The notes under the pieces were generated by a model that was not told where the DNA came from, searched no databases, and saw nothing but the letters and a program-made list of their open reading frames with translations. Below, one piece after another: positions 38,311-57,402 of a stretch of 64,000 bases of DNA (its first letter is position 1; each line of letters starts with the position of its first letter). Location of the stretch: the IMG/VR virus record IMGVR_UViG_3300029288_000078, positions 54,733-118,732 of that record. One strand, given 5' to 3'. Both the position numbers and the translations under genes were made by a program. The DNA comes from a virus. Lineage: Duplodnaviria; Heunggongvirae; Uroviricota; Caudoviricetes.

Positions 38311-38337
38311 ATATCGGAGGAATTCGCAGAAACTTAA
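38311..38337 (-). promoter_or_regulatory. sigma-28-type promoter P1 (TTAAGTTT-N11-TCCGATAT)
   Basis: Matches FliA consensus with exact 11-nt spacer; upstream of HTH gene. Confidence 0.7.
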
Positions 38338-39701
38338 GCCCTTTTTAATACAGACACAATCTTTTTGATAATCGGATTTTGATCGGCTAATAATTCAATA
38401 GTTTTTTCAGTAATGCACTCAAGATTCTTTAAATTAAACAAAACATCAATATGCTTAAAGTGCCTAATCACATATTGCAATACCGCAGTGTACTTGTTCA
38501 TATCCGCCATATCAGAAACAGAAAAGAACTTGTTAAATGTTTGTTCGGTTAGTTCTACATCTTCATATTTGTCGGCAAGTTCATCAATATCAAGAGCACA
38601 AAAACAATCTGGCATTGCATTTATCAGGCTCAAGGTTACAAACTTATTCCTTGGGATACGATTGGCTATTAAATAAGCTAAAGCATTAACCAAGAGACTT
38701 AAATCTTTTTTCTCAATTATAGTTTCACGTATTTCTATTAATTGACTATCGCTTACAGCTGTTCCGTTTTGTAACTCTTGAATGTAATTTGTCGCACTTA
38801 TTGGTTTGGATACGTTTATTTGTTTAAGAGCACGTTTCAAATCAAGAACCTGTGTAGTGCTAGCCTCTTGATTTGCTTCTTGAATTAACTTTTTCAAATT
38901 ATCTGGCAATCTACCTTTAGTGTGTGGCACAATTCCTTTTTTGACAAGCTCTTCTTTAGTAGCATTGACTTTTTCAAATAACCTTTTCCAACCTACCTTC
39001 ATGCCTAACTTGTGAGCGCGAGCGGTAATAGTTTGTGTGGATAAATTTACTAAATCATCGCCAGCTACGGCAATAAGAGTATGAATTGCCTGTTCTATAT
39101 CAACTTGTTTAATCGGTTTAGCTAACGCCCTGTTTAATGTTCTACTTCGTTTTGGCGCGACACTTAATTCTTTTTCTATTTTCTTCATGGTTTTCCTTTT
39201 GATAGTTAAATTGATACTTGCATTTTTTTCAGGGAATATTTTAGAATACGATATGGCTTCTTTTTCTTGTTTAGTTAAATTGCGTTGTTTCAATTCATTC
39301 CATCGTGAGTCAAATACGCTGTTCACTTTCGCTAGTTCTGTTTTCACGTATTTACTGTTAGATGATGAAGTGAAACCAGCACTCCTAATAGTTATTACCG
39401 ATTCCTGCAAGTGTTGCAATTCAGATATATCTCTTACTATTGCATCCAAAGCACCTTGTTTAAAACTCAAAGGTATTGTGGCAACCTGTTCTAATATCGC
39501 TCTTACAAGCCCCGTTCGAATACGATCTTCATGCCATTTTTGAGCGTGAGCATTACCATCAAATGAACTAAGCTTTTTCCCATCAGGATGTTGAATAGTT
39601 TGTTCTTTTCCATGACACATTATCTTGCCACTCTCAAAACTAACAACTTCGTTTAAGTTCGTTGTAAATTTCACATTAAATCTTTTCGTAATCATATGCA
39701 T
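38334..39701 (-). CDS. Hypothetical protein (455 aa, basic central region)
   Basis: Long ORF with AGGAG SD; no family recognised. Confidence 0.7.
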   Translation of the reverse strand: MHMITKRFNVKFTTNLNEVVSFESGKIMCHGKEQTIQHPDGKKLSSFDGNAHAQKWHEDRIRTGLVRAILEQVATIPLSFKQGALDAIVRDISELQHLQESVITIRSAGFTSSSNSKYVKTELAKVNSVFDSRWNELKQRNLTKQEKEAISYSKIFPEKNASINLTIKRKTMKKIEKELSVAPKRSRTLNRALAKPIKQVDIEQAIHTLIAVAGDDLVNLSTQTITARAHKLGMKVGWKRLFEKVNATKEELVKKGIVPHTKGRLPDNLKKLIQEANQEASTTQVLDLKRALKQINVSKPISATNYIQELQNGTAVSDSQLIEIRETIIEKKDLSLLVNALAYLIANRIPRNKFVTLSLINAMPDCFCALDIDELADKYEDVELTEQTFNKFFSVSDMADMNKYTAVLQYVIRHFKHIDVLFNLKNLECITEKTIELLADQNPIIKKIVSVLKRA

Positions 39702-39805
39702 AGCTCCTTTTATACAAATGCCCTAGAAACAAGCAAAAGCCCATCTTCACTCTGGTAAACCTTAATAGTAGATGTAGTCAATAGTTATTTTGAGAAAAAA
39801 GATAG

Positions 39806-40804
39806 TTACTGCTTCCAATAATACGTACACTCCATATTTGACGTGAGCAGCACTTTTGGATTTACACGACCGGCATATAAACTTGTATTGTTAACAAAAC
39901 TGCTATCTTCAATTTCATAAGTCATAAACAAATTGGAAGCGTTAACCGTTGCCGATCCTCTTGTGGGATAGAAAATAAACTTAGAATTACCTCTTACAGG
40001 AATGCGATCAACAGAAAATGCATATTGCCATAAGCTAAGTCCACCAACTCCACCTGCTGGCCAAAAATCATTATTTCTAATGGCATTTTTAGGAATAATT
40101 CGATTGAAAGAAGTATCAAAACCAGATCCATCCGATACGATACGACCGCTGAATAATTTATCGCCTGCTGTTGTTTCTGAATATTCTACGTGTATGTAAC
40201 CAGGAATTAAAATTTGAGAGCTTTCTAAATTTGAAGAAGCACTAGGATTATTAGTATTGCTAAAACCAAAAGTACCATCACATATTTGTTGGAAGCTAAT
40301 TCTTGTTTCTAAACCATCAACGCCATTGGTGCCGTTCGTTCCATTGCTTCCATTTGTTCCATTAATACCGTCCACACCATTAGTACCATTAGTACCTGCA
40401 ATACCCCCTACCCCAGCAGCGCCTCTTAAATCTATATCCCCCCATTGATTGCTTGAACAGGTTTTGAAGCTTGCACTATCTTTAATAAACACCAATGCCC
40501 CTTCTTTTTCAGGACAACATATTGGTAGTTCAGCAGCTGTGGCTATAGAAAAAGCAGTGGTTGGATCTTTAACGGTAGTTACCACCCCATCTTTAACAAT
40601 TTCAGTGGTTGGATCGGTAGCAGCATCAGGGCAAGCAATCCCCCCATCAGCTAAAAACGCAACCACACAAGTTGATCCCCCCCCTATCACATCAGGTATC
40701 TCTGCACTAACCGTATTACCATTGGCGTTTACCGTACCACTTACATTTGCACTACCACAAGATATTAAAACCAAACCACCTAATCCAAACAATATACGTT
40801 TCAT
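39806..40804 (-). CDS. Collagen-like lipoprotein
   Basis: Lipobox LVLIS-C; Gly-X-Y run GAAGVGGIAGTNGTNGVDGINGTNGSNGTNGTNGVDG. Confidence 0.8.
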   Translation of the reverse strand: MKRILFGLGGLVLISCGSANVSGTVNANGNTVSAEIPDVIGGGSTCVVAFLADGGIACPDAATDPTTEIVKDGVVTTVKDPTTAFSIATAAELPICCPEKEGALVFIKDSASFKTCSSNQWGDIDLRGAAGVGGIAGTNGTNGVDGINGTNGSNGTNGTNGVDGLETRISFQQICDGTFGFSNTNNPSASSNLESSQILIPGYIHVEYSETTAGDKLFSGRIVSDGSGFDTSFNRIIPKNAIRNNDFWPAGGVGGLSLWQYAFSVDRIPVRGNSKFIFYPTRGSATVNASNLFMTYEIEDSSFVNNTSLYAGRVNPKVLLTSNMECTYYWKQ

Positions 40805-40816
40805 ATCAATCCCCTC

Positions 40817-41140
40817 CTATAGTGATAAAAACACTCCTGTATTTGTTTCAATAATGCTCTTAATACTATCGCAATATATCCCCTCCACTATCCCTTTTTC
40901 TTTTATTGCCGCCGTTGTGATTTGCACAAACCTAACATCATAAGTGTCGGCACCTTCATTGTAAGAAACCACAATATGAGATACCCCCCTACCATTGCGC
41001 CCTATCTTAAAACTTAGTGCAATACGCCCTTTGCTGTCGGTAGTGCTACAGATGTTTTTCGCGCCCATCATTAGAAACGCTCTATGGCCGATTTGGGTAG
41101 CTATCGTTTGTGAAATTTCATTTGCCCTTACTTTTTCCAT
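40817..41140 (-). CDS. Conserved-looking phage early hypothetical protein
   Basis: Start set to MEKVRANE because the upstream ATG lies inside promoter P2; ends GIYCDSIKSIIETNTGVFLSL. Confidence 0.65.
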   Translation of the reverse strand: MEKVRANEISQTIATQIGHRAFLMMGAKNICSTTDSKGRIALSFKIGRNGRGVSHIVVSYNEGADTYDVRFVQITTAAIKEKGIVEGIYCDSIKSIIETNTGVFLSL

Positions 41141-41178
41141 CTCCAAACCCCCTTTAATAAAATGTTCTTCTATCTTAT

Positions 41179-41205
41179 ATATCGGCAAGATTTAGGTTTT
41201 CTTAA
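41179..41205 (-). promoter_or_regulatory. sigma-28-type promoter P2 (TTAAGAAA-N11-GCCGATAT)
   Basis: Consensus -10, 11-nt spacer. Confidence 0.75.
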
Positions 41206-41726
41206 GCAATTTCTTTTAAAGGCCAAATAATGGTATATTCATCGCCATTGTCGATTACTTCTGGATCTCCATTCGGTGCTGTGTTCCAACATCCACTTGC
41301 TGCAATGAATTTCGAACTTGCTGTCATATATTTGATCATTCCCGTTTTAGTTTTTCGATAGTGTTTTAGTTCTCCGCTATTTCTTTTCCAGGTGCAATAA
41401 AATACTAATTCCTTAACAAGTTCGGCTTTGTATATACGTTTGTTGTTTTCAGAAGTAAAACATCCATTAAAAGTCCATAAAGTTTCAATATTTTCATTAT
41501 CTTTAATGCAAAAACATTGTGTTTTATTTGTGTTTGCTAAACGAGTTCTGGCTACCCTTGCTTGTGTGATAGTTTTAAACACCTTGGCTTTTGTAATTTC
41601 TATAGAGCTTGTATATTCACCTGTTTTGTAGTTGAGAGATGTAATTACACAGGTATAAAGTGGCTCCCAACTGCCGTCGTCTCTGCCACTAACAATCACA
41701 AACCCGTTTTTGTTTTCCATATCCAT
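41202..41726 (-). CDS. Hypothetical early protein
   Basis: 174 aa ORF, AAGGGG SD, downstream of P3. Confidence 0.65.
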   Translation of the reverse strand: MDMENKNGFVIVSGRDDGSWEPLYTCVITSLNYKTGEYTSSIEITKAKVFKTITQARVARTRLANTNKTQCFCIKDNENIETLWTFNGCFTSENNKRIYKAELVKELVFYCTWKRNSGELKHYRKTKTGMIKYMTASSKFIAASGCWNTAPNGDPEVIDNGDEYTIIWPLKEIA

Positions 41727-41770
41727 TCCCCCTTTTATGAAGTGTTATTGATCGCCTTCTTCTATTACTT

Positions 41771-41797
41771 ATATCGGCAGAAAACGTCAAAACTTTA
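41771..41797 (-). promoter_or_regulatory. sigma-28-type promoter P3 (TAAAGTTT-N11-GCCGATAT)
   Basis: One mismatch from canonical TAAAGTTT-N11-GCCGATAA. Confidence 0.85.
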
Positions 41798-42343
41798 ATC
41801 GTTATTTTGAAGTATTTTGATTATTTTTATGGCTTGCTCAAGTGTAATATCAAAAGTTTTAATATTTATACGATTACTAGCACTTACATTTACTTGATGA
41901 TGATCATTTTTCGTGGTAAACAAATAAGGGAACTTCATTTCTTCGTATACATTGCCAGTTAATACAGCTAAAGTTTCACTGGTATTCATGGCAGCGGCAA
42001 GCGTACCGTTATCAATTGCCCATTGCCGTTTAATAATCTCTAATGCCTCGCGCTGGCCTTCTATTAGAGTAATTACAGCTTGCAAGTAATCATGTATAGC
42101 GAAACCTTTTTCTTGGAATTTTGTAGTTTTGTTTTTATCCAAATAAACAAAGTAAGTTGCATATTCTGCTTTTAAAAGTATTTTGATTAAATATTGGCGA
42201 TCATTTACCAATAGAAAACTAATACCGAAACATTCATTTTTAGCTATCAAGGTTTCATTGTAAACTGAAAAACCAGCTGTAGGATAGGCTAAATTTAAAT
42301 CACTGGCTAGCCTTTGGAGAAGATGTTTCGGTGTGGTATTCAT
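41795..42343 (-). CDS. Hypothetical early protein
   Basis: Start MNTTPK with GGGGTG SD, coupled to upstream gene. Confidence 0.65.
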   Translation of the reverse strand: MNTTPKHLLQRLASDLNLAYPTAGFSVYNETLIAKNECFGISFLLVNDRQYLIKILLKAEYATYFVYLDKNKTTKFQEKGFAIHDYLQAVITLIEGQREALEIIKRQWAIDNGTLAAAMNTSETLAVLTGNVYEEMKFPYLFTTKNDHHQVNVSASNRINIKTFDITLEQAIKIIKILQNND

Positions 42344-42344
42344 G

Positions 42345-42869
42345 TTATTCACCCCAAACTAGTTTGGTTATTTTTTCAGAACTGGCTATTATTCCTTTTC
42401 TAATCTCAGTAAAACGAGCCTTTAAAAATTCTCTTTCATCTTCTGCTGTAGCCAAATTTGCTTCTATCAAAGTTTCTACATCAAAAAAATCTTCAATAGT
42501 ATACAAAACAATGCAACCTTCTGCTTTTACCTTGCGAGGATCTAGATCATCATGCTCACGCCGACAATAATCTAAACTAGGCACTTGTATTTTGTAGCCG
42601 GCGCTGTCTTCAGTTTCGATCATTAAATTTTCTACATTGGCTTCAGTTACTTGTTTTAATAATTTATATATCCCCTGTGCTGTATTAATTTTTCTATCTC
42701 TTTTTTTAAAAATAACATTGTAAGAAAAGGTTACACAAAATCTAGTTGTTTCGCCTAATTCATTTTCATTAGCTTCGTTAGTTTCGCAACAATCAGCTAA
42801 GCCAACAGAACTGTTGAAATACTTGTCAAACATTACGCTTACTTCTTTTTCTGTTAGTTTTGAAAACAT
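42345..42869 (-). CDS. Hypothetical acidic early protein
   Basis: 174 aa, GGGGGG SD, downstream of P4. Confidence 0.65.
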   Translation of the reverse strand: MFSKLTEKEVSVMFDKYFNSSVGLADCCETNEANENELGETTRFCVTFSYNVIFKKRDRKINTAQGIYKLLKQVTEANVENLMIETEDSAGYKIQVPSLDYCRREHDDLDPRKVKAEGCIVLYTIEDFFDVETLIEANLATAEDEREFLKARFTEIRKGIIASSEKITKLVWGE

Positions 42870-42917
42870 GTTCGTCCCCCCTTGTTAGTTGTTATTCGTT
42901 TTCTTCCCTCATATATA

Positions 42918-42944
42918 TTATCGGTACAAAACAGAAAAACTTTA
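42918..42944 (-). promoter_or_regulatory. sigma-28-type promoter P4 (TAAAGTTT-N11-ACCGATAA)
   Basis: One mismatch from canonical; GATC at 42954. Confidence 0.85.
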
Positions 42945-42963
42945 GCGGTATTTGATCGGTTTT

Positions 42964-42997
42964 AAAAAGAAAAAAGCCAATGCATTTAAGCATTGGC
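42964..42997 (-). terminator. Rho-independent terminator
   Basis: 8-bp stem GCCAATGC/GCATTGGC, 6-nt loop, followed on minus strand by a U-rich tract; downstream of lipoprotein gene. Confidence 0.75.
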
Positions 42998-43022
42998 CTG
43001 AATATCACATAAGGGGAACACT

Positions 43023-43619
43023 CTATTCATCGTTTTCAGAGCCTACGTTTTCAATAAACTTTTCCTGTGCTTTTAATAGCTTTTCTTTCATTTCTGAACT
43101 AACTTTGGCCTTGGCTACTTGATCTTCTAATTGTTTGGTTAGTTCAGCTTTGGTTATAGAAACGCGAGCTGCACATCGAAGTTTTAAAGTTTTATTGCCT
43201 AAAGTATCTGGCTCTTGTACTTTTTCCCAATACCTAGCTACAAGTTTCACCCCAGATAACTTGCCCGATGTAATGAAAGCAGTTATGCCTTCATATCCAC
43301 TATCGCCTTGACTTGCATTTTCACCTAGTTGCCCAGATTCTGTTATTGCAGTTTTTACATATTGCACTATCTGACTTTTGGCTTTCAATTCAGCTGCATT
43401 CATACAAGAGTCAACCCGATTAGTCCCCCCCATAGATATTGTATAAGAGTAAAGAAGATTATTCCCCTCCTCTACTAATGGCACATCCCCTATAGTCCAT
43501 TTAGGTGTTTCATCCCCCCCACCTATTCTTTCAATAACGCTACTAGCAAAGAATTCAGGTTGTGCGTTTTTAGTACTAGAACAGCCAACAATAAGCAAAC
43601 CTATTAATAAACGTTTCAT
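43023..43619 (-). CDS. Lipoprotein, LPP20-like
   Basis: Lipobox LLIVG-C; P.W motif followed by AAELKAKSQIVQYV helix typical of LPP20-like lipoproteins. Confidence 0.6.
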   Translation of the reverse strand: MKRLLIGLLIVGCSSTKNAQPEFFASSVIERIGGGDETPKWTIGDVPLVEEGNNLLYSYTISMGGTNRVDSCMNAAELKAKSQIVQYVKTAITESGQLGENASQGDSGYEGITAFITSGKLSGVKLVARYWEKVQEPDTLGNKTLKLRCAARVSITKAELTKQLEDQVAKAKVSSEMKEKLLKAQEKFIENVGSENDE

Positions 43620-43643
43620 ATTCATTCCCCCTATACAAAAACA

Positions 43644-43832
43644 TTATTCCAATACACTCGTAATAGCTAAATCAGTGATATGCCCATCTTCTAACGCCGG
43701 ATCTGTTTTTGATACTCCAATGCTACCCAATATATTTTCATGTTGTAAGGCGTGCGTATTTACTAGCTCAAAATCCACAGGCACCTTAGCAATAATGGTT
43801 ATTACAATTTTTTTAAACGGTTTAGCTTTCAT
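43644..43832 (-). CDS. Hypothetical small protein
   Basis: GGGGAATGAAT-ATG leader shared with neighbours. Confidence 0.6.
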   Translation of the reverse strand: MKAKPFKKIVITIIAKVPVDFELVNTHALQHENILGSIGVSKTDPALEDGHITDLAITSVLE

Positions 43833-43834
43833 AT

Positions 43835-44053
43835 TCATTCCCCCTTGCCTTGTGCTGCTAAGAATTCAGGTATATCAAGTTGTGTGCCTGATAGGTAATT
43901 AATCGTCAAGCTAATTGCATACCCATCGTTTTCAGAAAACCGATCTTGTAATGCCTTCAAAACCTCTATTGCTTTGCCAGTGCTTGTTAATGATCGGTTA
44001 TGTGTTGCAAAGAAATGCACGCCGTTTAAGCTTATGTTTATCTCATAATACAT
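43835..44053 (-). CDS. Hypothetical small protein
   Basis: GGGGAATGAAT-ATG leader; first gene after P5. Confidence 0.65.
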   Translation of the reverse strand: MYYEINISLNGVHFFATHNRSLTSTGKAIEVLKALQDRFSENDGYAISLTINYLSGTQLDIPEFLAAQGKGE

Positions 44054-44101
44054 ATTCATTCCCCTTTTGTTGTTACACCGATCCTCTTTCCTCTATTACT
44101 T

Positions 44102-44128
44102 ATATCGGCAACATTCCAGAAAACTTTA
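44102..44128 (-). promoter_or_regulatory. sigma-28-type promoter P5 (TAAAGTTT-N11-GCCGATAT)
   Basis: Near canonical; GATC at 44138. Confidence 0.85.
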
Positions 44129-44677
44129 ATCTTTTTTGATCGCTAATTTAAAACCTAGTTTAGTAATTTGAGCTAATAGCCGTGCCGTTTCTTGCCTGCA
44201 ATCTTCTTGATATTCAGGGTATAGATTTAAAGCATAGGAAAAAGGATCGGCTGGCCCTATCTTAAAGGCTTCTTGACTATCCCCCCCACCATATATGCCT
44301 ACAGTTTTATTTTCCAAATCCACAATATAATGCCACTCAACATCCCCATGTTTACCTAATAAAGAAGGCTCGAATGCCCCCCCTATACCCGTATCTTCCC
44401 CATAAGCGTCAACATTAGCGCCTTGCCCATACACACTAGTTGCCTCTCCAATGAGTAAACCTACAACTTGATCAACATGTAAACTTGCTTTTTCACTTCG
44501 AATGCTACCCTTGTTATATGCTTTAATTTGCTTTTGTGCCTTTTTTAAAGTTTCTACAATTATCGGCAAATTCCCTGTAGGATACCCATCGCTATGTTTG
44601 TACAATCTTACAGTTTGATCATGTTTGCTGTGAATTCTTTGCTTGCCAGTGATAACAATAATTGATCGTGTACTCAT
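44126..44677 (-). CDS. Phage hypothetical protein with YxHxDGYP motif
   Basis: MSTRS.I...RLYKHSDGYP and HGDVEWHYIVDL, a recurrent phage early-protein pattern. Confidence 0.7.
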   Translation of the reverse strand: MSTRSIIVITGKQRIHSKHDQTVRLYKHSDGYPTGNLPIIVETLKKAQKQIKAYNKGSIRSEKASLHVDQVVGLLIGEATSVYGQGANVDAYGEDTGIGGAFEPSLLGKHGDVEWHYIVDLENKTVGIYGGGDSQEAFKIGPADPFSYALNLYPEYQEDCRQETARLLAQITKLGFKLAIKKD

Positions 44678-44716
44678 ATCGAACCCCCCCTAGTTAGTTG
44701 TTTAATCCCAGCCTCT

Positions 44717-44947
44717 TTAAGAAAGGTCAATTGCTACTTTATCTTCACTCGAAAGCTCTAATGTTTCATCATCATTTATTTCAATCGTGATAGATTTGAG
44801 TGTTTGCCCCCCCAATGTAACTTTTGTGATAATTCCTGAAATATCATCTATTTCTATCCCATCGACACCACAAGATTGACTATCAGGAATCACTCGGCCA
44901 TAAAAAAACATTCCAGTTTTTAGCTTTTTCGCTTTAATTGTACTCAT
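44717..44947 (-). CDS. Hypothetical small protein
   Basis: Start MSTIKAKK with GGGGAG SD. Confidence 0.6.
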   Translation of the reverse strand: MSTIKAKKLKTGMFFYGRVIPDSQSCGVDGIEIDDISGIITKVTLGGQTLKSITIEINDDETLELSSEDKVAIDLS

Positions 44948-44948
44948 A

Positions 44949-45164
44949 TCACTCCCCCTTATATCCCAATACCTTGCCAAACCTATTCAATAAATACCCG
45001 TCTCGTATAGCTTGATCTTGTGCTCTTTCATTTGCCCCAGTAGCATCCCCATGAGAGCCTACAGTAAAACCATTACAGTTATCGCAAGCTTCAATATATT
45101 CACAAAAGTCATCATGGGTAACTTCTAAATAACCTTTACCCTCGCAACTTTCACATTTACACAT
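44949..45164 (-). CDS. Small CxxC-CxxC zinc-binding-like protein
   Basis: CESCEGKG...CDNCNG, DnaJ-type Cys pairs; after P6. Confidence 0.6.
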   Translation of the reverse strand: MCKCESCEGKGYLEVTHDDFCEYIEACDNCNGFTVGSHGDATGANERAQDQAIRDGYLLNRFGKVLGYKGE

Positions 45165-45213
45165 ATAATCCCCCTTTGTTCCTGCCCTTTTTGATCAACT
45201 TCTTCTATCTTAT

Positions 45214-45240
45214 ATATCGGCACATTTCGCGTTTTCTTTA
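45214..45240 (-). promoter_or_regulatory. sigma-28-type promoter P6 (TAAAGAAA-N11-GCCGATAT)
   Basis: Consensus TAAAG and -10, 11-nt spacer. Confidence 0.8.
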
Positions 45241-45249
45241 GCACTATTT

Positions 45250-45483
45250 TTAAAAAGTTATGTTGGCTATTGACAGCGCTTTTATCGTGCCGTGTTGTGT
45301 AGATACGTTGTCAGGCTGCACTAGGTTGCAATTATACATATCAGCGAGTAATAGGGCACTGGTGGCGCTGTCTGCTATAACTAATGCCTGCTCTTGCCAG
45401 TTTGCTCTTTCATTAGCCGTCAACACTTCACTTTTATTCGTTAGTAACTCAATTTCACCTAAGCTAATTAAAAATATATGCAT
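45250..45483 (-). CDS. Hypothetical small protein
   Basis: Start MHIFLIS, coupled to upstream gene. Confidence 0.55.
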   Translation of the reverse strand: MHIFLISLGEIELLTNKSEVLTANERANWQEQALVIADSATSALLLADMYNCNLVQPDNVSTQHGTIKALSIANITF

Positions 45484-45484
45484 T

Positions 45485-45928
45485 TCATTCCCCTTTGATA
45501 AAAGCAAAGATTATTTCATTGGCCAAATCAAAACCAATACCACTGCAATCAATACAAGGGATTACTCTTTCAACTATATCGGTTAGATCATCCCCCTGTG
45601 CCCCCCCACTACCCATTAATTTATGAAATATTTCACTAGCAATATCATCATCTTCAAAAGCATCCGAGTCATTATTGGGATGGTTGCGAAATAATTCAAT
45701 TAATGGCATAACTAGATCGGTATATTGTTGTAAGTTTTCTAAATTTGCTAATAATTCTGCTTTTTCTTCAAAATCAATGCCAATATCAGAGCAGAAACTA
45801 GGTGCCGTATCCATAATATCGCATTGAGATCGTTCTATCATGCCCTTGGTTTCTTCATGCTCTTGACTCTCTTGAGCTAAAGCATCGGCTAATATCATGC
45901 GGGCAACTTCTTTAGTGATGTAGTTCAT
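45485..45928 (-). CDS. Highly acidic hypothetical protein
   Basis: About 30 D/E versus <10 K/R in 147 aa; after P7. Confidence 0.65.
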   Translation of the reverse strand: MNYITKEVARMILADALAQESQEHEETKGMIERSQCDIMDTAPSFCSDIGIDFEEKAELLANLENLQQYTDLVMPLIELFRNHPNNDSDAFEDDDIASEIFHKLMGSGGAQGDDLTDIVERVIPCIDCSGIGFDLANEIIFAFIKGE

Positions 45929-45974
45929 AATTTTCCCCCTTTGTTATACCGTTATCATTTTCCCTCTATATATA

Positions 45975-46001
45975 ATATCGGTAGAAAACTGGAAAACTTG
46001 A
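45975..46001 (-). promoter_or_regulatory. sigma-28-type promoter P7 (TCAAGTTT-N11-ACCGATAT)
   Basis: 11-nt spacer; GATC at 46011. Confidence 0.8.
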
Positions 46002-46020
46002 GCCTTTTTTGATCAATTTT

Positions 46021-47040
46021 TTAGCTTGCTTGTTTTTGTTTTTTTCGGCTTTGTTTGGTTGGCGCTGGATCTGTATTGGCCTTTAATACCCATTGACAGC
46101 TAAAATCTTCATTAATAGTGCAAACATGGTTAGGATGTTCGCATAATTCAAAGGTTGGCGTCAATATTACTTCTTCAATAATTGATCGCAATGCCCTTGC
46201 CCCAGTGCCTAGAGTCAATGCTTTTTCAGCTACCTTGCCCAATGCGCCTTCAGAGAATATCAAATCACAATTTAAAGCAGAAAACAGCCTAGTATATTGC
46301 GACACAATAGAATTTTCAGGTTTGGTTAATATATCTTTTAGTTCGTCAATACCTAGGGCAGTAATTTCAGCAATTACAGGCAACCTGCCCACTAATTCCG
46401 GTATCATTCCAAACTTTTGAAGATCGTATTGTGTTACCCTACCATCGGTTTTTGTAATGCCTACAAAAGCGCCCGAAACAATAAATAAGATATTCGAAGT
46501 GTCAATTTCAATCGTGCGAGATCCAGGATGTTTTCTGCCACTAGCTTCCCCATTAATGTGAACAGTGTGCCCTTCGATTATTTTCAATAAGCCTTGTTGA
46601 ACACCTTCCCCAGAAACATCCCTAGTAACCGACACACCAGCGCCTTTTTTAGCTTTTTTATCAATTTCATCAATAAAAATTATTCCGTGTTCGGTTGCCT
46701 CAATATCTTCCCCTGAAGCCTGATATAACCGCCCTATAACGGTTTCTACATCATCCCCTACATAACCGGCTTCAGTTAAACTTGTAGCATCGGCAATTGC
46801 AAAGGGAATATTTAAAAACTTTGAAATAATTTTAGCAAAGTGTGTTTTCCCGCAACCTGAAGGCCCCACCATTAAAATGTTGCTTTTTTCCAAATCTAAT
46901 TCAGGATGTTCCATGCGCAATAAGTGTTTAAATACCGCAACTGATAACGCACGCTTTGCCCCAGATTGATTTACAATGTGCTTGTTGAAAAAATTCACAA
47001 TATCTTTTGGGTTTTTGGTATTGACTACATTGGTTTTCAT
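46021..47040 (-). CDS. clpX: ClpX-like AAA+ ATPase lacking zinc-binding domain and IGF loop
   Basis: GPSGCGKT, ADATSLTEAGYVGDDVE, IIFIDEIDK, RDVSGEGVQQGLLK, RKHP, GRLPV and GARALR all ClpX-specific; no N-terminal C4 zinc domain; IGF segment absent. Confidence 0.92.
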   Translation of the reverse strand: MKTNVVNTKNPKDIVNFFNKHIVNQSGAKRALSVAVFKHLLRMEHPELDLEKSNILMVGPSGCGKTHFAKIISKFLNIPFAIADATSLTEAGYVGDDVETVIGRLYQASGEDIEATEHGIIFIDEIDKKAKKGAGVSVTRDVSGEGVQQGLLKIIEGHTVHINGEASGRKHPGSRTIEIDTSNILFIVSGAFVGITKTDGRVTQYDLQKFGMIPELVGRLPVIAEITALGIDELKDILTKPENSIVSQYTRLFSALNCDLIFSEGALGKVAEKALTLGTGARALRSIIEEVILTPTFELCEHPNHVCTINEDFSCQWVLKANTDPAPTKQSRKKQKQAS

Positions 47041-47095
47041 ATGCATTCCCCTTTTGTTAGTTGTTGTTACGCCGATCTTCTTTCCTCTATATATA

Positions 47096-47122
47096 ATATC
47101 GGTAGAAAACTGGAAAACTTTA
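47096..47122 (-). promoter_or_regulatory. sigma-28-type promoter P8 (TAAAGTTT-N11-ACCGATAT) driving clpX-like gene
   Basis: 11-nt spacer; GATC at 47132. Confidence 0.85.
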
Positions 47123-47136
47123 GCCTTTTTTGATCA

Positions 47137-47223
47137 TTAATCTTGTAATATATCCAAACCAAACACATCGGATAAAACTTTAACAGCTACAAAAACTAAA
47201 TAAAAAGAAATTATAATAGTCAT
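47137..47223 (-). CDS. 28-aa hydrophobic peptide
   Basis: MTIIISFYLVFVAVKVLSDVFGLDILQD with AAGGGGG SD; below ORF-track cutoff. Confidence 0.45.
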   Translation of the reverse strand: MTIIISFYLVFVAVKVLSDVFGLDILQD

Positions 47224-47235
47224 AACATTCCCCCC

Positions 47236-47355
47236 TTATTTATTCCAACCGTTTACTGCCAAATCTAACCTTGCTTGTTTCTTCAATTCCCGCTCTTTAC
47301 TTCTCTCTTGTAGTTTCACTGGTGTTGTGTGTTGTTTTAAAAGTTTCATTTTCAT
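47236..47355 (-). CDS. 39-aa basic peptide
   Basis: MKMKLLKQHTTPVKLQERSKERELKKQARLDLAVNGWNK with AAGGGGG SD; first ORF after P9. Confidence 0.5.
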   Translation of the reverse strand: MKMKLLKQHTTPVKLQERSKERELKKQARLDLAVNGWNK

Positions 47356-47400
47356 ACATGCCCCCTTTTTTGTTGAAACCGCTTTCTTCTCTCATATATA

Positions 47401-47427
47401 TTATCGGCACATTTCAACAAAACTTGA
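47401..47427 (-). promoter_or_regulatory. sigma-28-type promoter P9 (TCAAGTTT-N11-GCCGATAA)
   Basis: One mismatch from canonical; GATC at 47437. Confidence 0.85.
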
Positions 47428-47441
47428 GCCTTTTTTGATCG

Positions 47442-47825
47442 CTATTTGTATTTTTTAAATTGTTCAAAGGCTGGTAAACTAATTAGATACTTATACACTA
47501 ACTTGCAAACTGTTTTTTGTCTCGCATTACTATATTCAAATTTCCATATGCGTGCTCTTTCTGCATTATTACCAGCGCCAGGCAAACCTTTAAATAAGTT
47601 TGGATAACCTGCTTTTAAACTATCAGCCTTCACACCTGTTATATACACTTCTAATAACATCAAAATACTGTTTATCCAATATGCCTCAAGAGTAACCGTG
47701 CCATTAAAACTATCTTGCCTTGTTAATATTCCATGACTCTTGTTTACTAATTCTTCATCTTCCAATACATTCCTAGCTATCGCCTTGCCAATTTCTACAA
47801 ATTCAAATTTAATTAGATCTTTCAT
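47442..47825 (-). CDS. Hypothetical early protein
   Basis: 127 aa ORF with GGGGA SD. Confidence 0.65.
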   Translation of the reverse strand: MKDLIKFEFVEIGKAIARNVLEDEELVNKSHGILTRQDSFNGTVTLEAYWINSILMLLEVYITGVKADSLKAGYPNLFKGLPGAGNNAERARIWKFEYSNARQKTVCKLVYKYLISLPAFEQFKKYK

Positions 47826-47826
47826 G

Positions 47827-48216
47827 TTATTCCCCTTTGCCTAAATCATCCCAATTACTTTTCTTTGATGTGTTTATTCCAGCGCAACCACAACACCGAT
47901 GATCTAATTCATTGGGTTCATCTTTGTAGAATCCCACATGATTACACGCTGAACATTCCATTAAAAAATACCCTGCTAATACTTCATCGATTTGCTTGCG
48001 TTCTTCTTCAAACGATACCTTGTTAGCTATCTCAATTACTCGTTTATCTTCTTCACAATTAGGCTCAATAGCACCCGCACTAACCAAACGAACACAAACC
48101 AATTCAATAGCGCCTTCATCCCAAAACGCTTGTATATCATCCTCGCTATCGTTATTACTAAAACCAAAGGCACACTCTAAATACTCTTTTACTTGCCTCA
48201 ATGATATTTTACTCAT
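47827..48216 (-). CDS. Hypothetical protein with C-terminal CxxC...CxxC
   Basis: ECSACNH...RCCGCAG; after P10. Confidence 0.65.
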   Translation of the reverse strand: MSKISLRQVKEYLECAFGFSNNDSEDDIQAFWDEGAIELVCVRLVSAGAIEPNCEEDKRVIEIANKVSFEEERKQIDEVLAGYFLMECSACNHVGFYKDEPNELDHRCCGCAGINTSKKSNWDDLGKGE

Positions 48217-48258
48217 TTCATTCCCCCTTTTTGATCGCCAATAATTCCTCTATTACTT

Positions 48259-48285
48259 ATATCGGCAATATTCCAGAAAACTTTA
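48259..48285 (-). promoter_or_regulatory. sigma-28-type promoter P10 (TAAAGTTT-N11-GCCGATAT)
   Basis: Near canonical; 41-bp unit differs from P5 unit by one base. Confidence 0.85.
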
Positions 48286-48292
48286 GCACTAT

Positions 48293-48463
48293 TTATAAAA
48301 ATATTACCTCAATAGCCTTTACCAAAACATCACTAGGGCAAGTATCAGAATCGCCAAAATTAAATACCTTGCCAATATAATGCGCCCTTATTTGATCATC
48401 ACTTCCATTAATATCGGTTACTAAAGTATTGCCATTGCTAAAAATTACTTTTATCGTTCTCAT
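48293..48463 (-). CDS. Hypothetical small protein
   Basis: Start MRTIKVIFSNG with AAGGGGA SD; TDINGSDDQIRAHYIG. Confidence 0.6.
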   Translation of the reverse strand: MRTIKVIFSNGNTLVTDINGSDDQIRAHYIGKVFNFGDSDTCPSDVLVKAIEVIFL

Positions 48464-48473
48464 AACATTCCCC

Positions 48474-48749
48474 TTATTTGAAATAACCTGCTTTAAACCA
48501 ATTGGGCATATCTTCACGGGTTTTGAAACTAACTAAATAACGAGAGGGACTAAAACTAGGCTTGCTGTCTCTAATCGAAACATATTTCATTTCATCCCGG
48601 CAATCGGCGTTTTCTGCCACTATCAATGCAAGCTCGGCACTATCGCATTCAATTACCAGTTTATTGATTTTCCCTTCAGCCTTGCCCCAATAACTCATAG
48701 CACTATCAGTCATGCATACATAATATTTTCCAGTTTTAGATATTCCCAT
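48474..48749 (-). CDS. Hypothetical small protein
   Basis: Start MGISKTG (upstream ATG lies in promoter); YYVCMTD..MS.WG motif. Confidence 0.65.
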   Translation of the reverse strand: MGISKTGKYYVCMTDSAMSYWGKAEGKINKLVIECDSAELALIVAENADCRDEMKYVSIRDSKPSFSPSRYLVSFKTREDMPNWFKAGYFK

Positions 48750-48798
48750 AACACGTTCCCCTTTGTTAGTTGTTACCCTGCAAGTTCCTCTATATATA

Positions 48799-48825
48799 TT
48801 ATCGGCACATTTCAACAAAACTTTA
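48799..48825 (-). promoter_or_regulatory. sigma-28 promoter P11, perfect consensus TAAAGTTT-N11-GCCGATAA
   Basis: Exact match to canonical FliA consensus; GATC at 48835. Confidence 0.9.
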
Positions 48826-48839
48826 GCACTTTTTGATCA

Positions 48840-49115
48840 TTATTTTTCAGCAATGTTTTCTAAATAATAAGCAAGCCCAATTGCAGTCAATTCCAAAGTA
48901 CTTTCATTAGGATCTTTATTTGGATAACATTTTACATAGCCTTTTTTTGATAATGAGGAAATTGCGCCAGATAACTGCAAACCATCAATATCCCCATAAT
49001 CACATACCGACGCGGACCAAACTTCTTTATTTGCAATAACAGCGCCTGCATAACATTGAACCATAAAAGATATTGCCTGTAGTGCCCTTGTTTCTAGTTC
49101 GGTTAGTTGTTCCAT
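48840..49115 (-). CDS. Winged-helix (MarR-like) small protein
   Basis: LTELETRAL...LSGAISSLSKKGYVKC...TLELTAIG wHTH pattern. Confidence 0.55.
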   Translation of the reverse strand: MEQLTELETRALQAISFMVQCYAGAVIANKEVWSASVCDYGDIDGLQLSGAISSLSKKGYVKCYPNKDPNESTLELTAIGLAYYLENIAEK

Positions 49116-49168
49116 GGTGTGTTCCCCTTTGTTAGTTGTTACCCTCTCGCTCTTTTCTCCTACCTTAT

Positions 49169-49195
49169 ATATCGACACAAAACAGAAAAACTTTA
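49169..49195 (-). promoter_or_regulatory. sigma-28-type promoter P12 (TAAAGTTT-N11-GTCGATAT)
   Basis: 11-nt spacer; GATC at 49205; first promoter of the leftward array. Confidence 0.8.
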
Positions 49196-49373
49196 GCCTT
49201 ATTTGATCGGTTTCTTTAAAAAAGTATATGTAGGGAATAGTTTTCCAGTATTAATAGGCATTACTATATATATTCGTTTACACGGCCAATAACGCACCCT
49301 AATCACGTGCCCTATACGTTTACCTACAAAACTAGTTTCATGCAACCACGGCCTTTAAAATTACCTTATAATG

Positions 49374-49460
49374 AAATGTACAATATTTTGCACATTATTG
49401 ACCTCTTGTACAACTTAAACTTGTACACTGGAATGAAAATGTACAATATTTTGCACATTA
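49374..49460. repeat. Two identical 24-bp quasi-palindromic repeats, 63 bp apart
   Basis: AAATGTACAATATTTTGCACATTA at 49374-49397 and 49437-49460. Confidence 0.85.
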
Positions 49461-49766: not shown

Positions 49767-49837
49767 AGGGCTTTCAGGTGTACTTGCCACATTTGAAAGC
49801 CCTTTCAGTTTTGATAATCATAGTTATCAAAACTGAA
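49767..49837. repeat. Two abutting inverted repeats
   Basis: AGGGCTTTCA/TGAAAGCCCT (49767-49803) and TTCAGTTTTGATAA/TTATCAAAACTGAA (49804-49837, perfect 14 bp). Confidence 0.85.
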
Positions 49838-51545: not shown

Positions 51546-51570
51546 GATTTATAAAGTTCAATAATAATGG

Positions 51571-54393: not shown

Positions 54394-54527
54394 AGTACCC
54401 ACCAGAAGACGATGATATACCAACAGGATGCTTTGTTTTAGGCGTTATCGTTATTCTATTCATATTTTTCTCTCCGTTATTAGTTGATTGGATTAGTAAT
54501 CATATTGAGATTAAAATTCATGAATAA
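54390..54527 (+). CDS. 45-aa single-TM peptide
   Basis: MKYPPEDDDIPTGCFVLGVIVILFIFFSPLL...; ATGA-coupled. Confidence 0.5.
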   Translation: MKYPPEDDDIPTGCFVLGVIVILFIFFSPLLVDWISNHIEIKIHE

Positions 54528-54614
54528 ACCGCCAATAGAATGATATAAAATACTGTTTTTGTATCAACTTAAGGGTAATTATGTTGAGGTAGTGGTGGTT
54601 ATCAAACAAAAGGA

Positions 54615-55034
54615 ATGCATATTATGGCAAACGATTTAGGTTTTAAAGTACCAGAAGAATTAGTCAAGCCTATTATTAAAGATCTTGTGGCAACTTATAT
54701 AGCTCAACAAATGGGCGATGCTAATAAAGTTATTGCAGAATTAGTTTCCAAGGCTTTGAGCGTAAAAGTAAATGAAAATGGAGTTGTTGATAAATACGAT
54801 TCTTATAACCACCAAAGTTACATAAATCTTATTTTAAACAAAAGTATTCATGAATTAGCAAAAGAAACCTTAAAAGAAATTTTAGATGCCAATAAAGAAA
54901 AAATTAAAGAGCAAATAAAGCTTGCCATTTCTAAACAGGGAGATTTGGGTGAGTTTATTTTTAATGGCTTTAAAGAATCTTTAGAATCTAATTGGCATTC
55001 TCATATCTCGGTTGCTTTTAAAAGGAAAGAATAA
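54615..55034 (+). CDS. Hypothetical helical protein
   Basis: 139 aa ORF with AAAGGA SD. Confidence 0.65.
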   Translation: MHIMANDLGFKVPEELVKPIIKDLVATYIAQQMGDANKVIAELVSKALSVKVNENGVVDKYDSYNHQSYINLILNKSIHELAKETLKEILDANKEKIKEQIKLAISKQGDLGEFIFNGFKESLESNWHSHISVAFKRKE

Positions 55035-55223
55035 ATGAATTATCTGAATTATGTAATGTCTACTGTAATTACGGCGATAAGTATTACTTTGCTTATTCTA
55101 GTTAAAAGAGGAATAGAAAGCTACGGCATTTCTGCTGGCACTGTGGCTTGGTATATATTTTTGTTTTTTCTTGCTGTCGGCGTGTTTTCTTTTTGTATGC
55201 AGATATTTAGTAGGGAGGCGTAA
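55035..55223 (+). CDS. Small two-TM membrane protein
   Basis: Two hydrophobic helices. Confidence 0.55.
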   Translation: MNYLNYVMSTVITAISITLLILVKRGIESYGISAGTVAWYIFLFFLAVGVFSFCMQIFSREA

Positions 55224-55427
55224 ATGAAACTTTGTATGGATTGTAAGCATAGTTATTATGAAGTGCGTTACTTCTTAGCTGCTTCTTTTCCTATAAGAGA
55301 GATACGTTGTAAATTCCACAAAGTACCAGTAGATATAGCAAGACGAATAGATGGATATTGTGACGACGCAAAAGACTTCGAACCGACCCTTTGGTATAAA
55401 TTTAGAAAATTATTGAGGTTGGTATGA
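55224..55427 (+). CDS. Cys-rich small protein, EPTLWY family copy 2
   Basis: MKLCMDC...FEPTLWYKFRKLLRLV. Confidence 0.65.
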   Translation: MKLCMDCKHSYYEVRYFLAASFPIREIRCKFHKVPVDIARRIDGYCDDAKDFEPTLWYKFRKLLRLV

Positions 55428-55669
55428 GCTTTGAGTTTTGCCTAGCATATCCTGAAGTAATAATGACTACTGAACAAATAAATGCTCCGGTAAATATTAT
55501 ACATAAAATTGGAATATTTAATCTTAAACAAGCAGAATGTGTTTTTATAAAATTATCTATTAGTAATGTAAAAGTATATGCAATTAATGAAGATAAGATG
55601 GAAATAAGGTTGGTTACAAATTGGTGGGAAGCAAAACAATTTTTCAATGAGGATGAAAGCGTAGTATGA
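55424..55669 (+). CDS. Hypothetical small protein
   Basis: ATGA-coupled ORF. Confidence 0.55.
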   Translation: MSFEFCLAYPEVIMTTEQINAPVNIIHKIGIFNLKQAECVFIKLSISNVKVYAINEDKMEIRLVTNWWEAKQFFNEDESVV

Positions 55670-55902
55670 AGCTTGTAGTTGGCAAACACAACATGTTATG
55701 CGTTTCGGGTGAAGGATTCCGTATTGGAGATCTAATAGAAATAGAGGGAGTTCCTATTCTAAAATATCGTCCAACGGCAGATGATGTAGCAAAAGTAAGA
55801 GGCGAAAGTGGTGCGAGCATAGTTGATTGTGCTTTTGCGCTTGGTATGTGTTCTGGAGATATCGAAAAAACAGTTTTATTCTTAAGAGAAATGGGGTATT
55901 AG
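55666..55902 (+). CDS. Protein with EF-Ts N-terminal UBA-like domain
   Basis: TADDVAKVRGESGASIVDCAFALGMCSGDIEKTVLFLREMG aligns with EF-Ts [41 protein letters not shown]. Confidence 0.7.
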   Translation: MKLVVGKHNMLCVSGEGFRIGDLIEIEGVPILKYRPTADDVAKVRGESGASIVDCAFALGMCSGDIEKTVLFLREMGY

Positions 55903-55903
55903 T

Positions 55904-56236
55904 ATGAAGAACGAATTGATAGCGAGATGTGTGCACCATGTAAATAATAAAATTTGCGAACTGAATAACGAGCAAACAATTGCATGGGAAGATACACCAA
56001 AGCACATGCAAGACGGTTTAATATCGGCTATAAACGACAATCTATCGCCAAGAGAAGGTCATATTAATTGGATGATGAACAGACTAGCAAACGGCTGGAA
56101 ACTTGGTGCAGAAAAAAGTATTGAAAATAAAATTAGCCCATGTTTAATTCCCTATGAGGAGTTGCCTTATGCACAAAGAATTAAAGATTCAGTGAGGCAA
56201 GGCATAGTGGAATTTTTAAAGGAGGTACAAGAATGA
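55904..56236 (+). CDS. RyR-domain protein
   Basis: HINWMMNRLANGWKLG.EK....KISPCLIPYEELP..QRIKD matches RyR repeat. Confidence 0.75.
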   Translation: MKNELIARCVHHVNNKICELNNEQTIAWEDTPKHMQDGLISAINDNLSPREGHINWMMNRLANGWKLGAEKSIENKISPCLIPYEELPYAQRIKDSVRQGIVEFLKEVQE

Positions 56237-56505
56237 CAGCGCCTGATGTTTTAGTTAATAATATGACTCGTCCTGAAACGCTTAAAGATATTAAAAATTT
56301 TGTATTATCTCTTCCTGATGAAACTCTTGAGCAAGTAGTGGTTTTTAATATTAAGTGGGGAAATGAAGCTGGTACGGTTTCGTGGAAAAGAAAAGAAACC
56401 CCTAAACAATATTGGCGACGGAAACAACAAACAGTGGCGGCAGACGAACTCATAAGCACCTGCGAACCGATCGGAAAAACGCATGATATACTCAGCACCA
56501 ACTAA
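56233..56505 (+). CDS. Hypothetical small protein
   Basis: ATGA-coupled, AAGGAGG SD. Confidence 0.55.
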   Translation: MTAPDVLVNNMTRPETLKDIKNFVLSLPDETLEQVVVFNIKWGNEAGTVSWKRKETPKQYWRRKQQTVAADELISTCEPIGKTHDILSTN

Positions 56506-56740
56506 AGAAGAAATAGAACAATGTTTTGAAGGTAGTAATTTTGGAAGCACTGACTATGAAAATATTGTAAAACTTGGATTATTAAAAGTTGCTTGTGGGT
56601 ATCATAATGGTTCTACACTAACTTGTATCTTATATAACTTAAGATTAATCCTCCCCGATTCTAAGCAGATTTTTAGTTTAACGGATAAAGGGAAACACTC
56701 TCTTTATGAATGGTTTTCTAATTATGCAAAGGAGAAGTAA
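56483..56740 (+). CDS. Hypothetical small protein
   Basis: LLKVACGYHNGST...LTDKGK winged-helix-like end. Confidence 0.55.
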   Translation: MIYSAPTKEEIEQCFEGSNFGSTDYENIVKLGLLKVACGYHNGSTLTCILYNLRLILPDSKQIFSLTDKGKHSLYEWFSNYAKEK

Positions 56741-56940
56741 TGACAGTAAATAATCATTGTGGTACTTGCTTGCACGAAGAGTTAAGTAGTGACCAAGAGC
56801 CTTGCAATACCTGTAGAAATAGTAATTGGGAGCCATTTATAGATAGAAATTGTGACAGTTGTTTACATCGCCACAGGCCAGAAACAGTAGAACCTTGTGC
56901 GTCTTGTGGGCATACAAGATGGGAGAAAAAGAATGGCTGA
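56740..56940 (+). CDS. Cys-rich repeat protein (CxxC...PCxxC x2)
   Basis: CGTCLH..EPCNTC and CDSCLH..EPCASC; paralogue of 52764..53078. Confidence 0.65.
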   Translation: MTVNNHCGTCLHEELSSDQEPCNTCRNSNWEPFIDRNCDSCLHRHRPETVEPCASCGHTRWEKKNG

Positions 56941-57154
56941 ACCAATAAGCGAATACGAAGTAGAAACAGATGCTATATATGAGCACAGGAAAACAGGTGC
57001 TTTATATGAAACTCACGATTTCTGTAAAGTCAAGCAAGCAGAAGGCAGTGACACCACTTGGGTTGTGGGAGTGATTTATTCACCTAAAGGGAATTTTTTT
57101 CAAAAATACGCTTGTTCTGTGAACGAGTTTGTTAGTAGATTTAAGGAGATTTAA
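56933..57154 (+). CDS. DUF1653-like small protein
   Basis: Start MAEPISEY; YEHRKTGALYE...VIY...FVSRFKEI pattern. Confidence 0.55.
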   Translation: MAEPISEYEVETDAIYEHRKTGALYETHDFCKVKQAEGSDTTWVVGVIYSPKGNFFQKYACSVNEFVSRFKEI

Positions 57155-57354
57155 ACACAAATCTCTCGAATTACTTTGTGTATTTTTTGTTTTAGATCAC
57201 AATTTTCGCCTTTACAGACTTCACACTCTTTAATTTCACAACAAAACTTAAGTCCGTGGAGGATTGCTTTTTTATTAGCTTTCCAGTGGGCGTCTTTTGG
57301 TGATAGTTCGATTTGCAAGATAGTATCGGCAATTTTAATTTCTAGTTCGTCCAT
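57151..57354 (-). CDS. Hypothetical small protein (CxxCxxC), sigma-28-driven
   Basis: GGAGG SD; directly after P13. Confidence 0.6.
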   Translation of the reverse strand: MDELEIKIADTILQIELSPKDAHWKANKKAILHGLKFCCEIKECEVCKGENCDLKQKIHKVIREICV

Positions 57355-57375
57355 AAACTGTTTCCTCCTACCTTT

Positions 57376-57402
57376 ATATCGGCAGAAAAGGGAAAAACTT
57401 AA
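57376..57402 (-). promoter_or_regulatory. sigma-28-type promoter P13 (TTAAGTTT-N11-GCCGATAT)
   Basis: 11-nt spacer; isolated copy in right arm. Confidence 0.8.

Follow-up and report, generated by a model that had tools for sequence, protein, structure and literature searches.

Arrays of sigma-28-type promoter sequences in an uncultured Caudoviricetes phage with a predicted region-4-only FliA-like protein

Introduction

Phages use the primary sigma factor of their host or bring a sigma factor or polymerase of their own. A question is raised by an uncultured Caudoviricetes phage, in which 13 repeated elements on the minus strand resemble promoters for the flagellar sigma factor sigma-28 (FliA, SigD): which factor reads them? 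The elements lie between positions 38,311 and 57,402 of a stretch of 64,000 nucleotides (nt), here called the window, which comprises bases 54,733-118,732 of the 182,732-bp IMG/VR record IMGVR_UViG_3300029288_000078 (CheckV completeness 100%). In a preliminary description of this DNA, it was proposed that the phage gates its early and takeover genes through the flagellar sigma factor of its host. From the analysis reported here, the elements are most likely working promoters of the sigma-28 class, as predicted from their sequence, and a sigma-28-family factor of the host (FliA/SigD) appears, by a modest preference, to be their reader.

Results

Sequence and placement of the elements

All 13 elements were recovered by pattern scans where they had been described, with the same boxes and an exact 11-nt spacer, which is also found in every other site of the genome. 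The -35 box reads TAAAGTTT in seven sites, TCAAGTTT and TTAAGTTT in two each, and TAAAGAAA and TTAAGAAA in one each. The -10 box reads GCCGATAT in six sites, GCCGATAA and ACCGATAT in two each, and ACCGATAA, TCCGATAT and GTCGATAT in one each. The -35 octamer TAAAGTTT (core TAAA) is exact in 7 of 13 sites, the remaining sites deviate from it at one to four of the eight positions, and the G at position 5 is invariant; within the -10 octamer CGATA is invariant and GCCGATA occurs in 8 of 13 sites. The published sigma-28 consensus is TAAAGTTT-n11-GCCGATAA (PMC2859248), to which the site at 48799 corresponds exactly, as had been noted before, and the Bacillus subtilis SigD consensus is given as TAAA-N15-GCCGATAT (PMC5200910). 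SigB, SigF/G, SigE/K and SigH-type consensuses were also considered, and each was found to fit the sites less well than SigD.

The placement of the sites agreed in kind with the preliminary description, since all 13 are oriented toward a gene with a strong Shine-Dalgarno sequence before its start codon. Between the end of the -10 box and the start codon lie 32-55 nt in the window, slightly less than the 40-60 nt first given, and 22-55 nt when all sites of the genome are counted. A pattern allowing one mismatch matched the window 24 times, compared with 3.7 +/- 1.7 times in shuffled sequences, none of which attained 24. Six extra sites were found outside the window, at genome positions 15045, 130229, 130960, 133331, 133782 and 138706, which brings the total to about 19. 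Across the genome, 16 of 107 upstream regions contained a site; shuffled sequences gave 0.1 +/- 0.4 such regions, and the reverse complement gave 2. Matching the published consensus, enriched and correctly placed, the elements bear out the earlier claim that they are promoter-like and of the FliA/SigD type.

Conservation was also noted outside the two boxes. A C stands directly 5' of the -35 box, an A-tract lies upstream of it (GATCAAAAAAGGC in seven sites), and TA(G/T)AGGAA follows about 7 nt past the -10 box, at the position expected for the transcription start. Two further features of these flanks were recorded. In 7 of 13 promoters (flanks within window 42,945-49,210) a GATC occurs at a constant position, 10-13 nt 5' of the -35 box, and a gene for a Dam-like methyltransferase was found at genome 151,371-151,904, with a Pfam Dam match (E = 1.4e-4) that falls short of the cut-off. 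The GATC-flanked promoters might be influenced by methylation. Between promoter and start codon, several units have the leader GTAACAACTAACAAAGGGGAA in common (window 42,870-49,170), which suggests either cassette duplication or a translational enhancer.

Promoter classes of the genome

We then compared the sigma-28-type sites with those of the sigma-70 type. In the region of the cluster, sigma-70-type matches were not enriched (58 found, 70 expected), while the pattern TTGACN-N16-18-TANNNT was modestly enriched elsewhere in the genome (6 vs 1.0). Many extended -10 sites of the form TGnTAnnnT were found 25-50 nt 5' of replication and structural genes, including the structural genes around window 26,381-34,365; an example is TGTTACAAT before a gene for a protein of 2,642 amino acids (aa). 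The phage, as judged from these predicted sites, carries at least two promoter classes, one of sigma-28 type and one of sigma-70/SigA-like extended -10 type. It is not wholly wired to sigma-28, as the preliminary description could be taken to imply, because TTGACN-N16-18-TANNNT and TGnTAnnnT sites precede its replication and structural genes.

Genes behind the sigma-28-type sites

Twelve of the window sites fall within a main block of sigma-28-type units on the minus strand (37979-49195), which holds about 25 small genes, mostly ORFans, and runs into the baseplate/tail module. The first site of the cluster, TAAAGTTT-N11-GTCGATAT at 49169-49195, stands before a 91-aa winged-helix-like gene (48840-49115). 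It is followed by the exact consensus TAAAGTTT-N11-GCCGATAA at 48799-48825, before a gene of phrog_5423, function unknown (48474-48749), and by TAAAGTTT-N11-GCCGATAT at 48259-48285, before two genes without a family match (47827-48216 and 47442-47825). Next come TCAAGTTT-N11-GCCGATAA at 47401-47427, before a 39-aa open reading frame (ORF; 47236-47355), and TAAAGTTT-N11-ACCGATAT at 47096-47122, before a gene for a ClpX-like AAA+ protein (46021-47040; AAA_2, 8.6e-26; ClpB_D2-small). Further along, TCAAGTTT-N11-ACCGATAT at 45975-46001 precedes the gene 45485-45928, TAAAGAAA-N11-GCCGATAT at 45214-45240 precedes a 71-aa Cys-rich gene (44949-45164), and TAAAGTTT-N11-GCCGATAT at 44102-44128 precedes two small genes (43835-44059 and 43644-43838). 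The site TAAAGTTT-N11-ACCGATAA at 42918-42944, before the gene 42345-42869, is itself preceded by the only clear terminator hairpin (42999-42974), and terminator prediction gave one terminator-like hairpin in the main cluster. The block continues with TAAAGTTT-N11-GCCGATAT at 41771-41797 (gene 41202-41726, 44 nt to the start codon), TTAAGAAA-N11-GCCGATAT at 41179-41205 (gene 40817-41146, phrog_9437, function unknown, 32 nt to the start codon) and TTAAGTTT-N11-TCCGATAT at 38311-38337, where 44 nt separate the end of the -10 box from the ATG of a 95-aa helix-turn-helix (HTH) gene (37979-38266; weak HTH_7 match). An isolated site, TTAAGTTT-N11-GCCGATAT at 57376-57402 (minus strand), lies inside a block of small plus-strand genes, before a 67-aa minus-strand ORF (57151-57354).

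The genes behind these promoters are nearly all small and without a family, with the exceptions of the ClpX-like AAA+ protein, a collagen-repeat protein, two small HTH-like proteins and two PHROGs of unknown function. No flagellar or chemotaxis gene was found among them, so that control of motility genes is not seen here; the driven genes are phage ORFans, the ClpX-like ATPase, small HTH proteins and the collagen-like protein. The earlier proposal of an early or takeover regulon is likewise not supported, because the driven genes are nearly all small unknown ORFs and the main cluster (49,195 to 37,979) lies directly upstream of the baseplate/tail module in the same orientation. By analogy with host-takeover modules, early timing of the sigma-28-type class is plausible, and the small-gene units probably serve accessory functions or interactions with the host.

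Immediately upstream of the cluster, where genes are few, a direct repeat of 24 nt (AAATGTACAATATTTTGCACATTA) is present in two exact copies separated by 63 nt (window 49,374-49,460). This repeat and a perfect 14-nt palindrome in the same stretch (window 49,804-49,837) were noted as candidate operator or origin elements.

Conservation in relatives and in unrelated viral contigs

We assessed whether the sites recur beyond this genome. In a relative with 60-80% protein identity (G007), five sigma-28-type sites were found at the start of the contig, each before a gene without a homologue in this phage. Two other relatives (G009, G010) carry three to four intergenic sites each, although their G+C content differs (45%), and two further relatives, the short contig L221 (described below) and the G022 contig, have one site each. 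Across IMG/VR, the exact sequence TAAAGTTT-N11-GCCGATAT matched 84 stretches. Unrelated contigs were found with arrays before small genes, comprising ten sites in 5 kb (L088), six (L113) and five (L083), with further examples in L109 and L133. In the loci sampled, these array contigs share essentially no proteins with this phage, and in several of them a GTAAG or ATAAG motif occurs about 7 nt past the -10 box. The strict motif was absent from 74 unrelated, distant viral loci (about 1.3 Mb) recovered via the ClpX-like gene. The promoter type is thus conserved while the genes downstream change, and it recurs in unrelated phages. A conserved host factor fits this recurrence better than a sigma factor specific to one phage lineage.

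Two observations were made alongside. One gene behind a sigma-28-type site of the relative G007 (L200:3369-4466) encodes a protein of 365 aa that combines a signal peptide of the lipoprotein type with a long linker rich in Thr and Pro, and has no counterpart in this phage. A 5-kb contig from lake sediment, CAIQQL010000021.1 (L219/L220), assigned to an 'uncultured archaeon' bin, encodes a capsid protein 66% identical to that of this phage, with a sigma-28-type site just past the capsid gene. To our knowledge, archaea have no sigma factors, and for this reason the phage DNA in this archaeal-labelled bin is almost certainly mis-binned.

Search for a phage sigma factor

The preliminary description had named a phage-encoded sigma factor beforehand as grounds for giving up the reading of a host factor, and the genome-wide search found no complete one. 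Six frames of the complete genome were examined with Sigma70_r2, sigma-70 superfamily and FliA/WhiG models, and no region 2 was detected, with matches confined to region 4. Searches of the phage genome with phmmer, using five phage sigma factors including that of Myxococcus phage Mx1, and with a region-2 regular expression found no homologue, the 'putative sigma factor' of Mx1 included. No phage gene was found for a sigma factor with a region 2 able to read the motif, which is what a phage-sigma regulon would call for. RNA polymerase was not among the annotated large proteins of the phage, and FlgM, the anti-sigma factor of sigma-28, was searched for in the phage genome and not detected. Sigma-like genes present in some other array-bearing phages were of the extracytoplasmic-function type, gp55-like or divergent, and none was FliA-like. 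A weak sigma match in the relative G007, over the homologues of genes g223/g224, was set aside as noise.

A region-4-only protein and its neighbour

Outside the window, a gene designated g195 (genome 130,660-130,911, minus strand) encodes a protein of 83 aa and lies 48 nt behind the promoter TAAAGTTT-N11-GTCGATAA. With the gene g194 it forms a tandem pair on the minus strand at genome 130,275-130,911 (window-equivalent 75,543-76,179; locus L174:12275-12911). The g195 protein matched PF04545 (Sigma70_r4) with 26.1 bits (cut-off 24.1) and has the region 4 helix-turn-helix, and four FliA/WhiG models were among its six best NCBIfam matches, with PhyR among the weak ones. Its best PDB sequence matches were FliA chains, led by Escherichia coli 6pmi_F (E = 1.5e-5) and followed by 9wsf, 9wsm and 1rp3. 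An AlphaFold2 model (predicted local distance difference test, pLDDT, 87.7) has a sigma-4 fold, with B. subtilis SigD as best fold match (32% identity, template modelling score 0.76) and the sigma-28/FlgM complexes (1rp3, 9wsf) among the others. On profile matches and the predicted fold, g195 is a FliA-type region 4 alone; its 83 residues hold no region 2, and it is not classed as a sigma factor.

Two features distinguish g195 and its small relatives from FliA. The recognition helix reads DKAEIVY-like where FliA has SRVSQLH, and a C-terminal helix with an HP-x-hydrophobic motif is added. The change of the DNA-contacting residues argues against g195 reading TAAAGTTT, and we infer a putative partner-binding protein, with FlgM or the polymerase beta-flap as partner, rather than a reader of the -35 box. 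Its role could be that of a regulator, a decoy or one half of a split sigma factor. Complex prediction of g195 with B. subtilis FlgM, used as a stand-in for that of the host, gave a score of 0.28 (mark 0.34), which speaks neither for nor against binding.

A word-indexed homologue search with g195 returned only itself and one 95% copy. On L221, a contig of 1.7 kb assembled from a different metagenome, TAAAGTTT-N11-TCCGATAT again precedes a homologue (42% identical), and the gene after it has 91% identity to the start of g194; this contig is a relative retaining the promoter and the gene pair. No g195-like gene was found in 19 other array-bearing or related records, which are mostly fragments. 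The neighbour g194 (113 aa) has a weak region-4 likeness in a single NCBIfam match (E = 0.04). As a region-4 protein it was unconfirmed, with no PDB match and no BLAST similarity to g195.

Genome context and host searches

The phage genome has a G+C content of about 38%. Its annotated genes include an intein-bearing DnaE-type polymerase (genome 15,143-18,514), DnaB, a GroEL-like chaperonin, a RecA-like ATPase, the ClpX-like ATPase, a lysin with CHAP and PG_binding_1 domains and the Dam-like methyltransferase. The nearest cultured phage is Mx1, with only 24-31% identity in terminase, portal, capsid and sheath. This distant relation to a Myxococcus phage is the sole pointer toward a Bdellovibrionota host or flagellotropism, both of which were suggested in the preliminary description and are speculative here. 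Uncultured relatives are nearer, with 69% sheath and 81% capsid identity in G006/G007 and 46-50% sheath identity in G009/G010. A homologue search with the structural gene at window 36156-37202 returned no relatives. A terminase-like protein of 1,038 aa (window 3,294-6,410, minus strand) was noted to match the Mx1 terminase at residues 2-70 and 439-796, the two parts being separated by a helicase/primase-like P-loop segment (about residues 63-460), which might represent a domain gained by insertion or fusion, or else an intein-like element.

A landfill metagenome was the sole public DNA run containing the phage sequence and is possibly the source sample. Megablast of the phage against phages gave no match, and two array-bearing contigs, compared with cultured phages by blastn, had no informative match. 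An Atlas look-up of the GT2 gene returned mixed phyla, and a scan of genome contigs for the capsid protein recovered only the 66% relative in the bin labelled 'uncultured archaeon'.

Discussion

The boxes of these sites are those of a cellular consensus conserved across bacterial phyla, so a host sigma-28-family factor is the simplest candidate for their reader, and we lean toward it with slightly better than even confidence. The familiar alternative of a phage bringing its own sigma factor does not fit, because none was found in the genome. The analysis shows the motif, its non-random distribution, its placement and orientation, its retention in relatives, the lack of a sigma region 2 that the searches could detect and the FliA-like character of g195. 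From there we infer which sigma reads the sites, when the units are expressed and what g195 does.

Several points weigh against a host factor. The host searches yielded no assignment, so that neither FliA nor flagella of the host can be demonstrated, and a search of public RNA runs for the region listed none. A factor specific to the phage could account for the conservation beyond the boxes, namely the C directly 5' of the -35 box, the GATC-containing A-tract and TAGAGGAA where transcription is likely to start. The clearly region-4-like g195 and the possibly region-4-like g194 could be parts of an unconventional phage specificity factor, and very divergent sigma factors, of the type of T4 gp55 or SPO1 gp28, can evade profile searches.

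The first competing explanation, which we regard as unlikely, is a specificity factor encoded by the phage. It would be either a highly divergent sigma factor that escaped detection or a split one, region 4 coming from g195 (alone or together with g194) and region 2 from a further small protein. The regulon would then be a middle or late class of the phage and not a takeover of host FliA. The position of this FliA-type region 4 behind a sigma-28-type promoter could be read as autoregulation, but its recognition helix is without the DNA-contacting residues of FliA. The gene pair and its promoter are kept in one relative, whereas the 19 other records, fragments for the most part, yielded no g195-like gene. 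Large array-bearing phages often carry some sigma-like gene; here, however, region 2 was not found by Pfam, NCBIfam, phmmer or regular expression in six frames. A divergent phage sigma factor would also not be expected to retain the exact cellular consensus.

A second explanation, which we consider improbable, is that in the lineage of the host a large share of promoters is read by a sigma-28-like factor serving as a major sigma factor, as in attack-phase Bdellovibrio. The phage would then simply use a major promoter class of its host, and flagella or motility would have no particular part in this. Its closest cultured relative is a phage of Myxococcus, and anoxic habitats, in which uncultured lineages abound, are the source of the phage and its relatives, although the host searches gave no assignment. 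In Bdellovibrio bacteriovorus, many attack-phase genes have a FliA-type promoter upstream (PMC3627812). Sigma-70-like and extended -10 sites stand before the replication and structural genes of this phage, however, which indicates that its host apparently has a conventional main class too. Finally, that the repeats are not promoters at all, being binding sites of a phage DNA-binding protein or duplicated cassette-junction remnants that resemble the sigma-28 consensus by chance, is very improbable. The long common flanks (GATCAAAAAAGGC upstream, leader GTAACAACTAACAAAGGGGAA) do suggest duplication of whole cassettes. Against this reading, the two boxes are constant whereas the spacer sequence and the flanks differ, and the bipartite motif is found with other flanks in relatives, and also in unrelated phages, at 20-60 nt from a start codon in every case. 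An exact two-box match to a known consensus with fixed spacing is also very unlikely to arise by chance.

If a host sigma-28-family factor is the reader, host RNA polymerase with a FliA/SigD-type sigma would read the roughly 19 sites, as a class beside the ordinary sigma-70/extended -10 class. Each promoter would drive a short unit of fast-evolving small genes, and expression of the units would depend on free sigma-28 in the infected cell, that is, on a motile, FlgM-depleted state. Made from one of these promoters, g195 may tune the system by binding not DNA but one of the proteins that contact region 4 of sigma-28, either FlgM or the beta-flap of the polymerase. A bolder form, which we think improbable, is a self-reinforcing takeover, in which g195, expressed from a sigma-28 promoter, titrates FlgM or competes at the beta-flap and so frees host sigma-28 for the roughly 19 phage promoters, as a viral anti-anti-sigma factor by mimicry; the promoter strategy around it would be one that many unrelated uncultured phages have in common.

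Were the host factor the reader, a set of phage genes would be expressed according to the motility of the cell, as would suit phages that encounter swimming cells, and the recurrence of this promoter type in many uncultured phages would be explained. The prediction would be portable as a test, sigma-28 recognition being conserved enough for heterologous assays, and g195 is a specific protein that may prove to be a new viral regulator of the switch between sigma and anti-sigma factor.

Comparison with known systems

In the open literature, no description was found of phage sigma-28 promoters or of systematic phage use of the host flagellar sigma factor. The closest counterparts in sequence are the class 3 flagellar promoters, read by FliA in E. 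coli and Salmonella and by SigD in B. subtilis, with which the phage sites have the -35 octamer, 11-nt spacer and -10 octamer identically in common, 6 of 13 being of the Bacillus type GCCGATAT. In contrast to them, the phage sites form arrays, with as many as 12 sites in 11 kb, and have extra conserved flanks. Class 3 promoters serve flagellin, chemotaxis and autolysin genes, whereas the phage sites drive ORFans and their sigma-28 dependence is predicted from sequence. The Bdellovibrio FliA regulon likewise extends sigma-28-type promoters far beyond flagellar genes, but it is a cellular regulon, and a Bdellovibrionota host for this phage would be speculation.

Among phages, SPO1 (gp28 and gp33/34), phiEco32 and 7-11 (gp36) and T4 (gp55) encode sigma factors of their own. 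Their regulons likewise have a stereotyped promoter class distinct from the main class of the host, but in this phage no region 2 was found and the motif is a cellular rather than a phage-specific consensus. The early promoter arrays of SPO1 and T4 are similar in that strong promoters are numerous and each serves one to three small genes, which evolve fast and have strong ribosome-binding sites. Those arrays are read by the primary sigma-A or sigma-70, whereas the boxes here are of sigma-28 type and early timing is proposed by analogy alone.

For g195, the nearest parallel is PhyR, whose sigma-like domain sequesters the anti-sigma factor NepR, and FlgM contacts sigma-28 region 4 in solved complexes (PDB 1rp3, 9wsf). 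Like PhyR, g195 presents a sigma domain without the remaining sigma factor, the architecture expected of an anti-sigma decoy. Unlike PhyR, which has both sigma-like regions and a receiver domain, it has region 4 only with the extra C-terminal helix bearing the HP-x-hydrophobic motif, and FlgM binding is a conjecture. The novel element in this phage is the gene for FliA region 4 only, and the comparison suggests a phage that probably borrows the motility sigma factor of its host and perhaps manipulates it.

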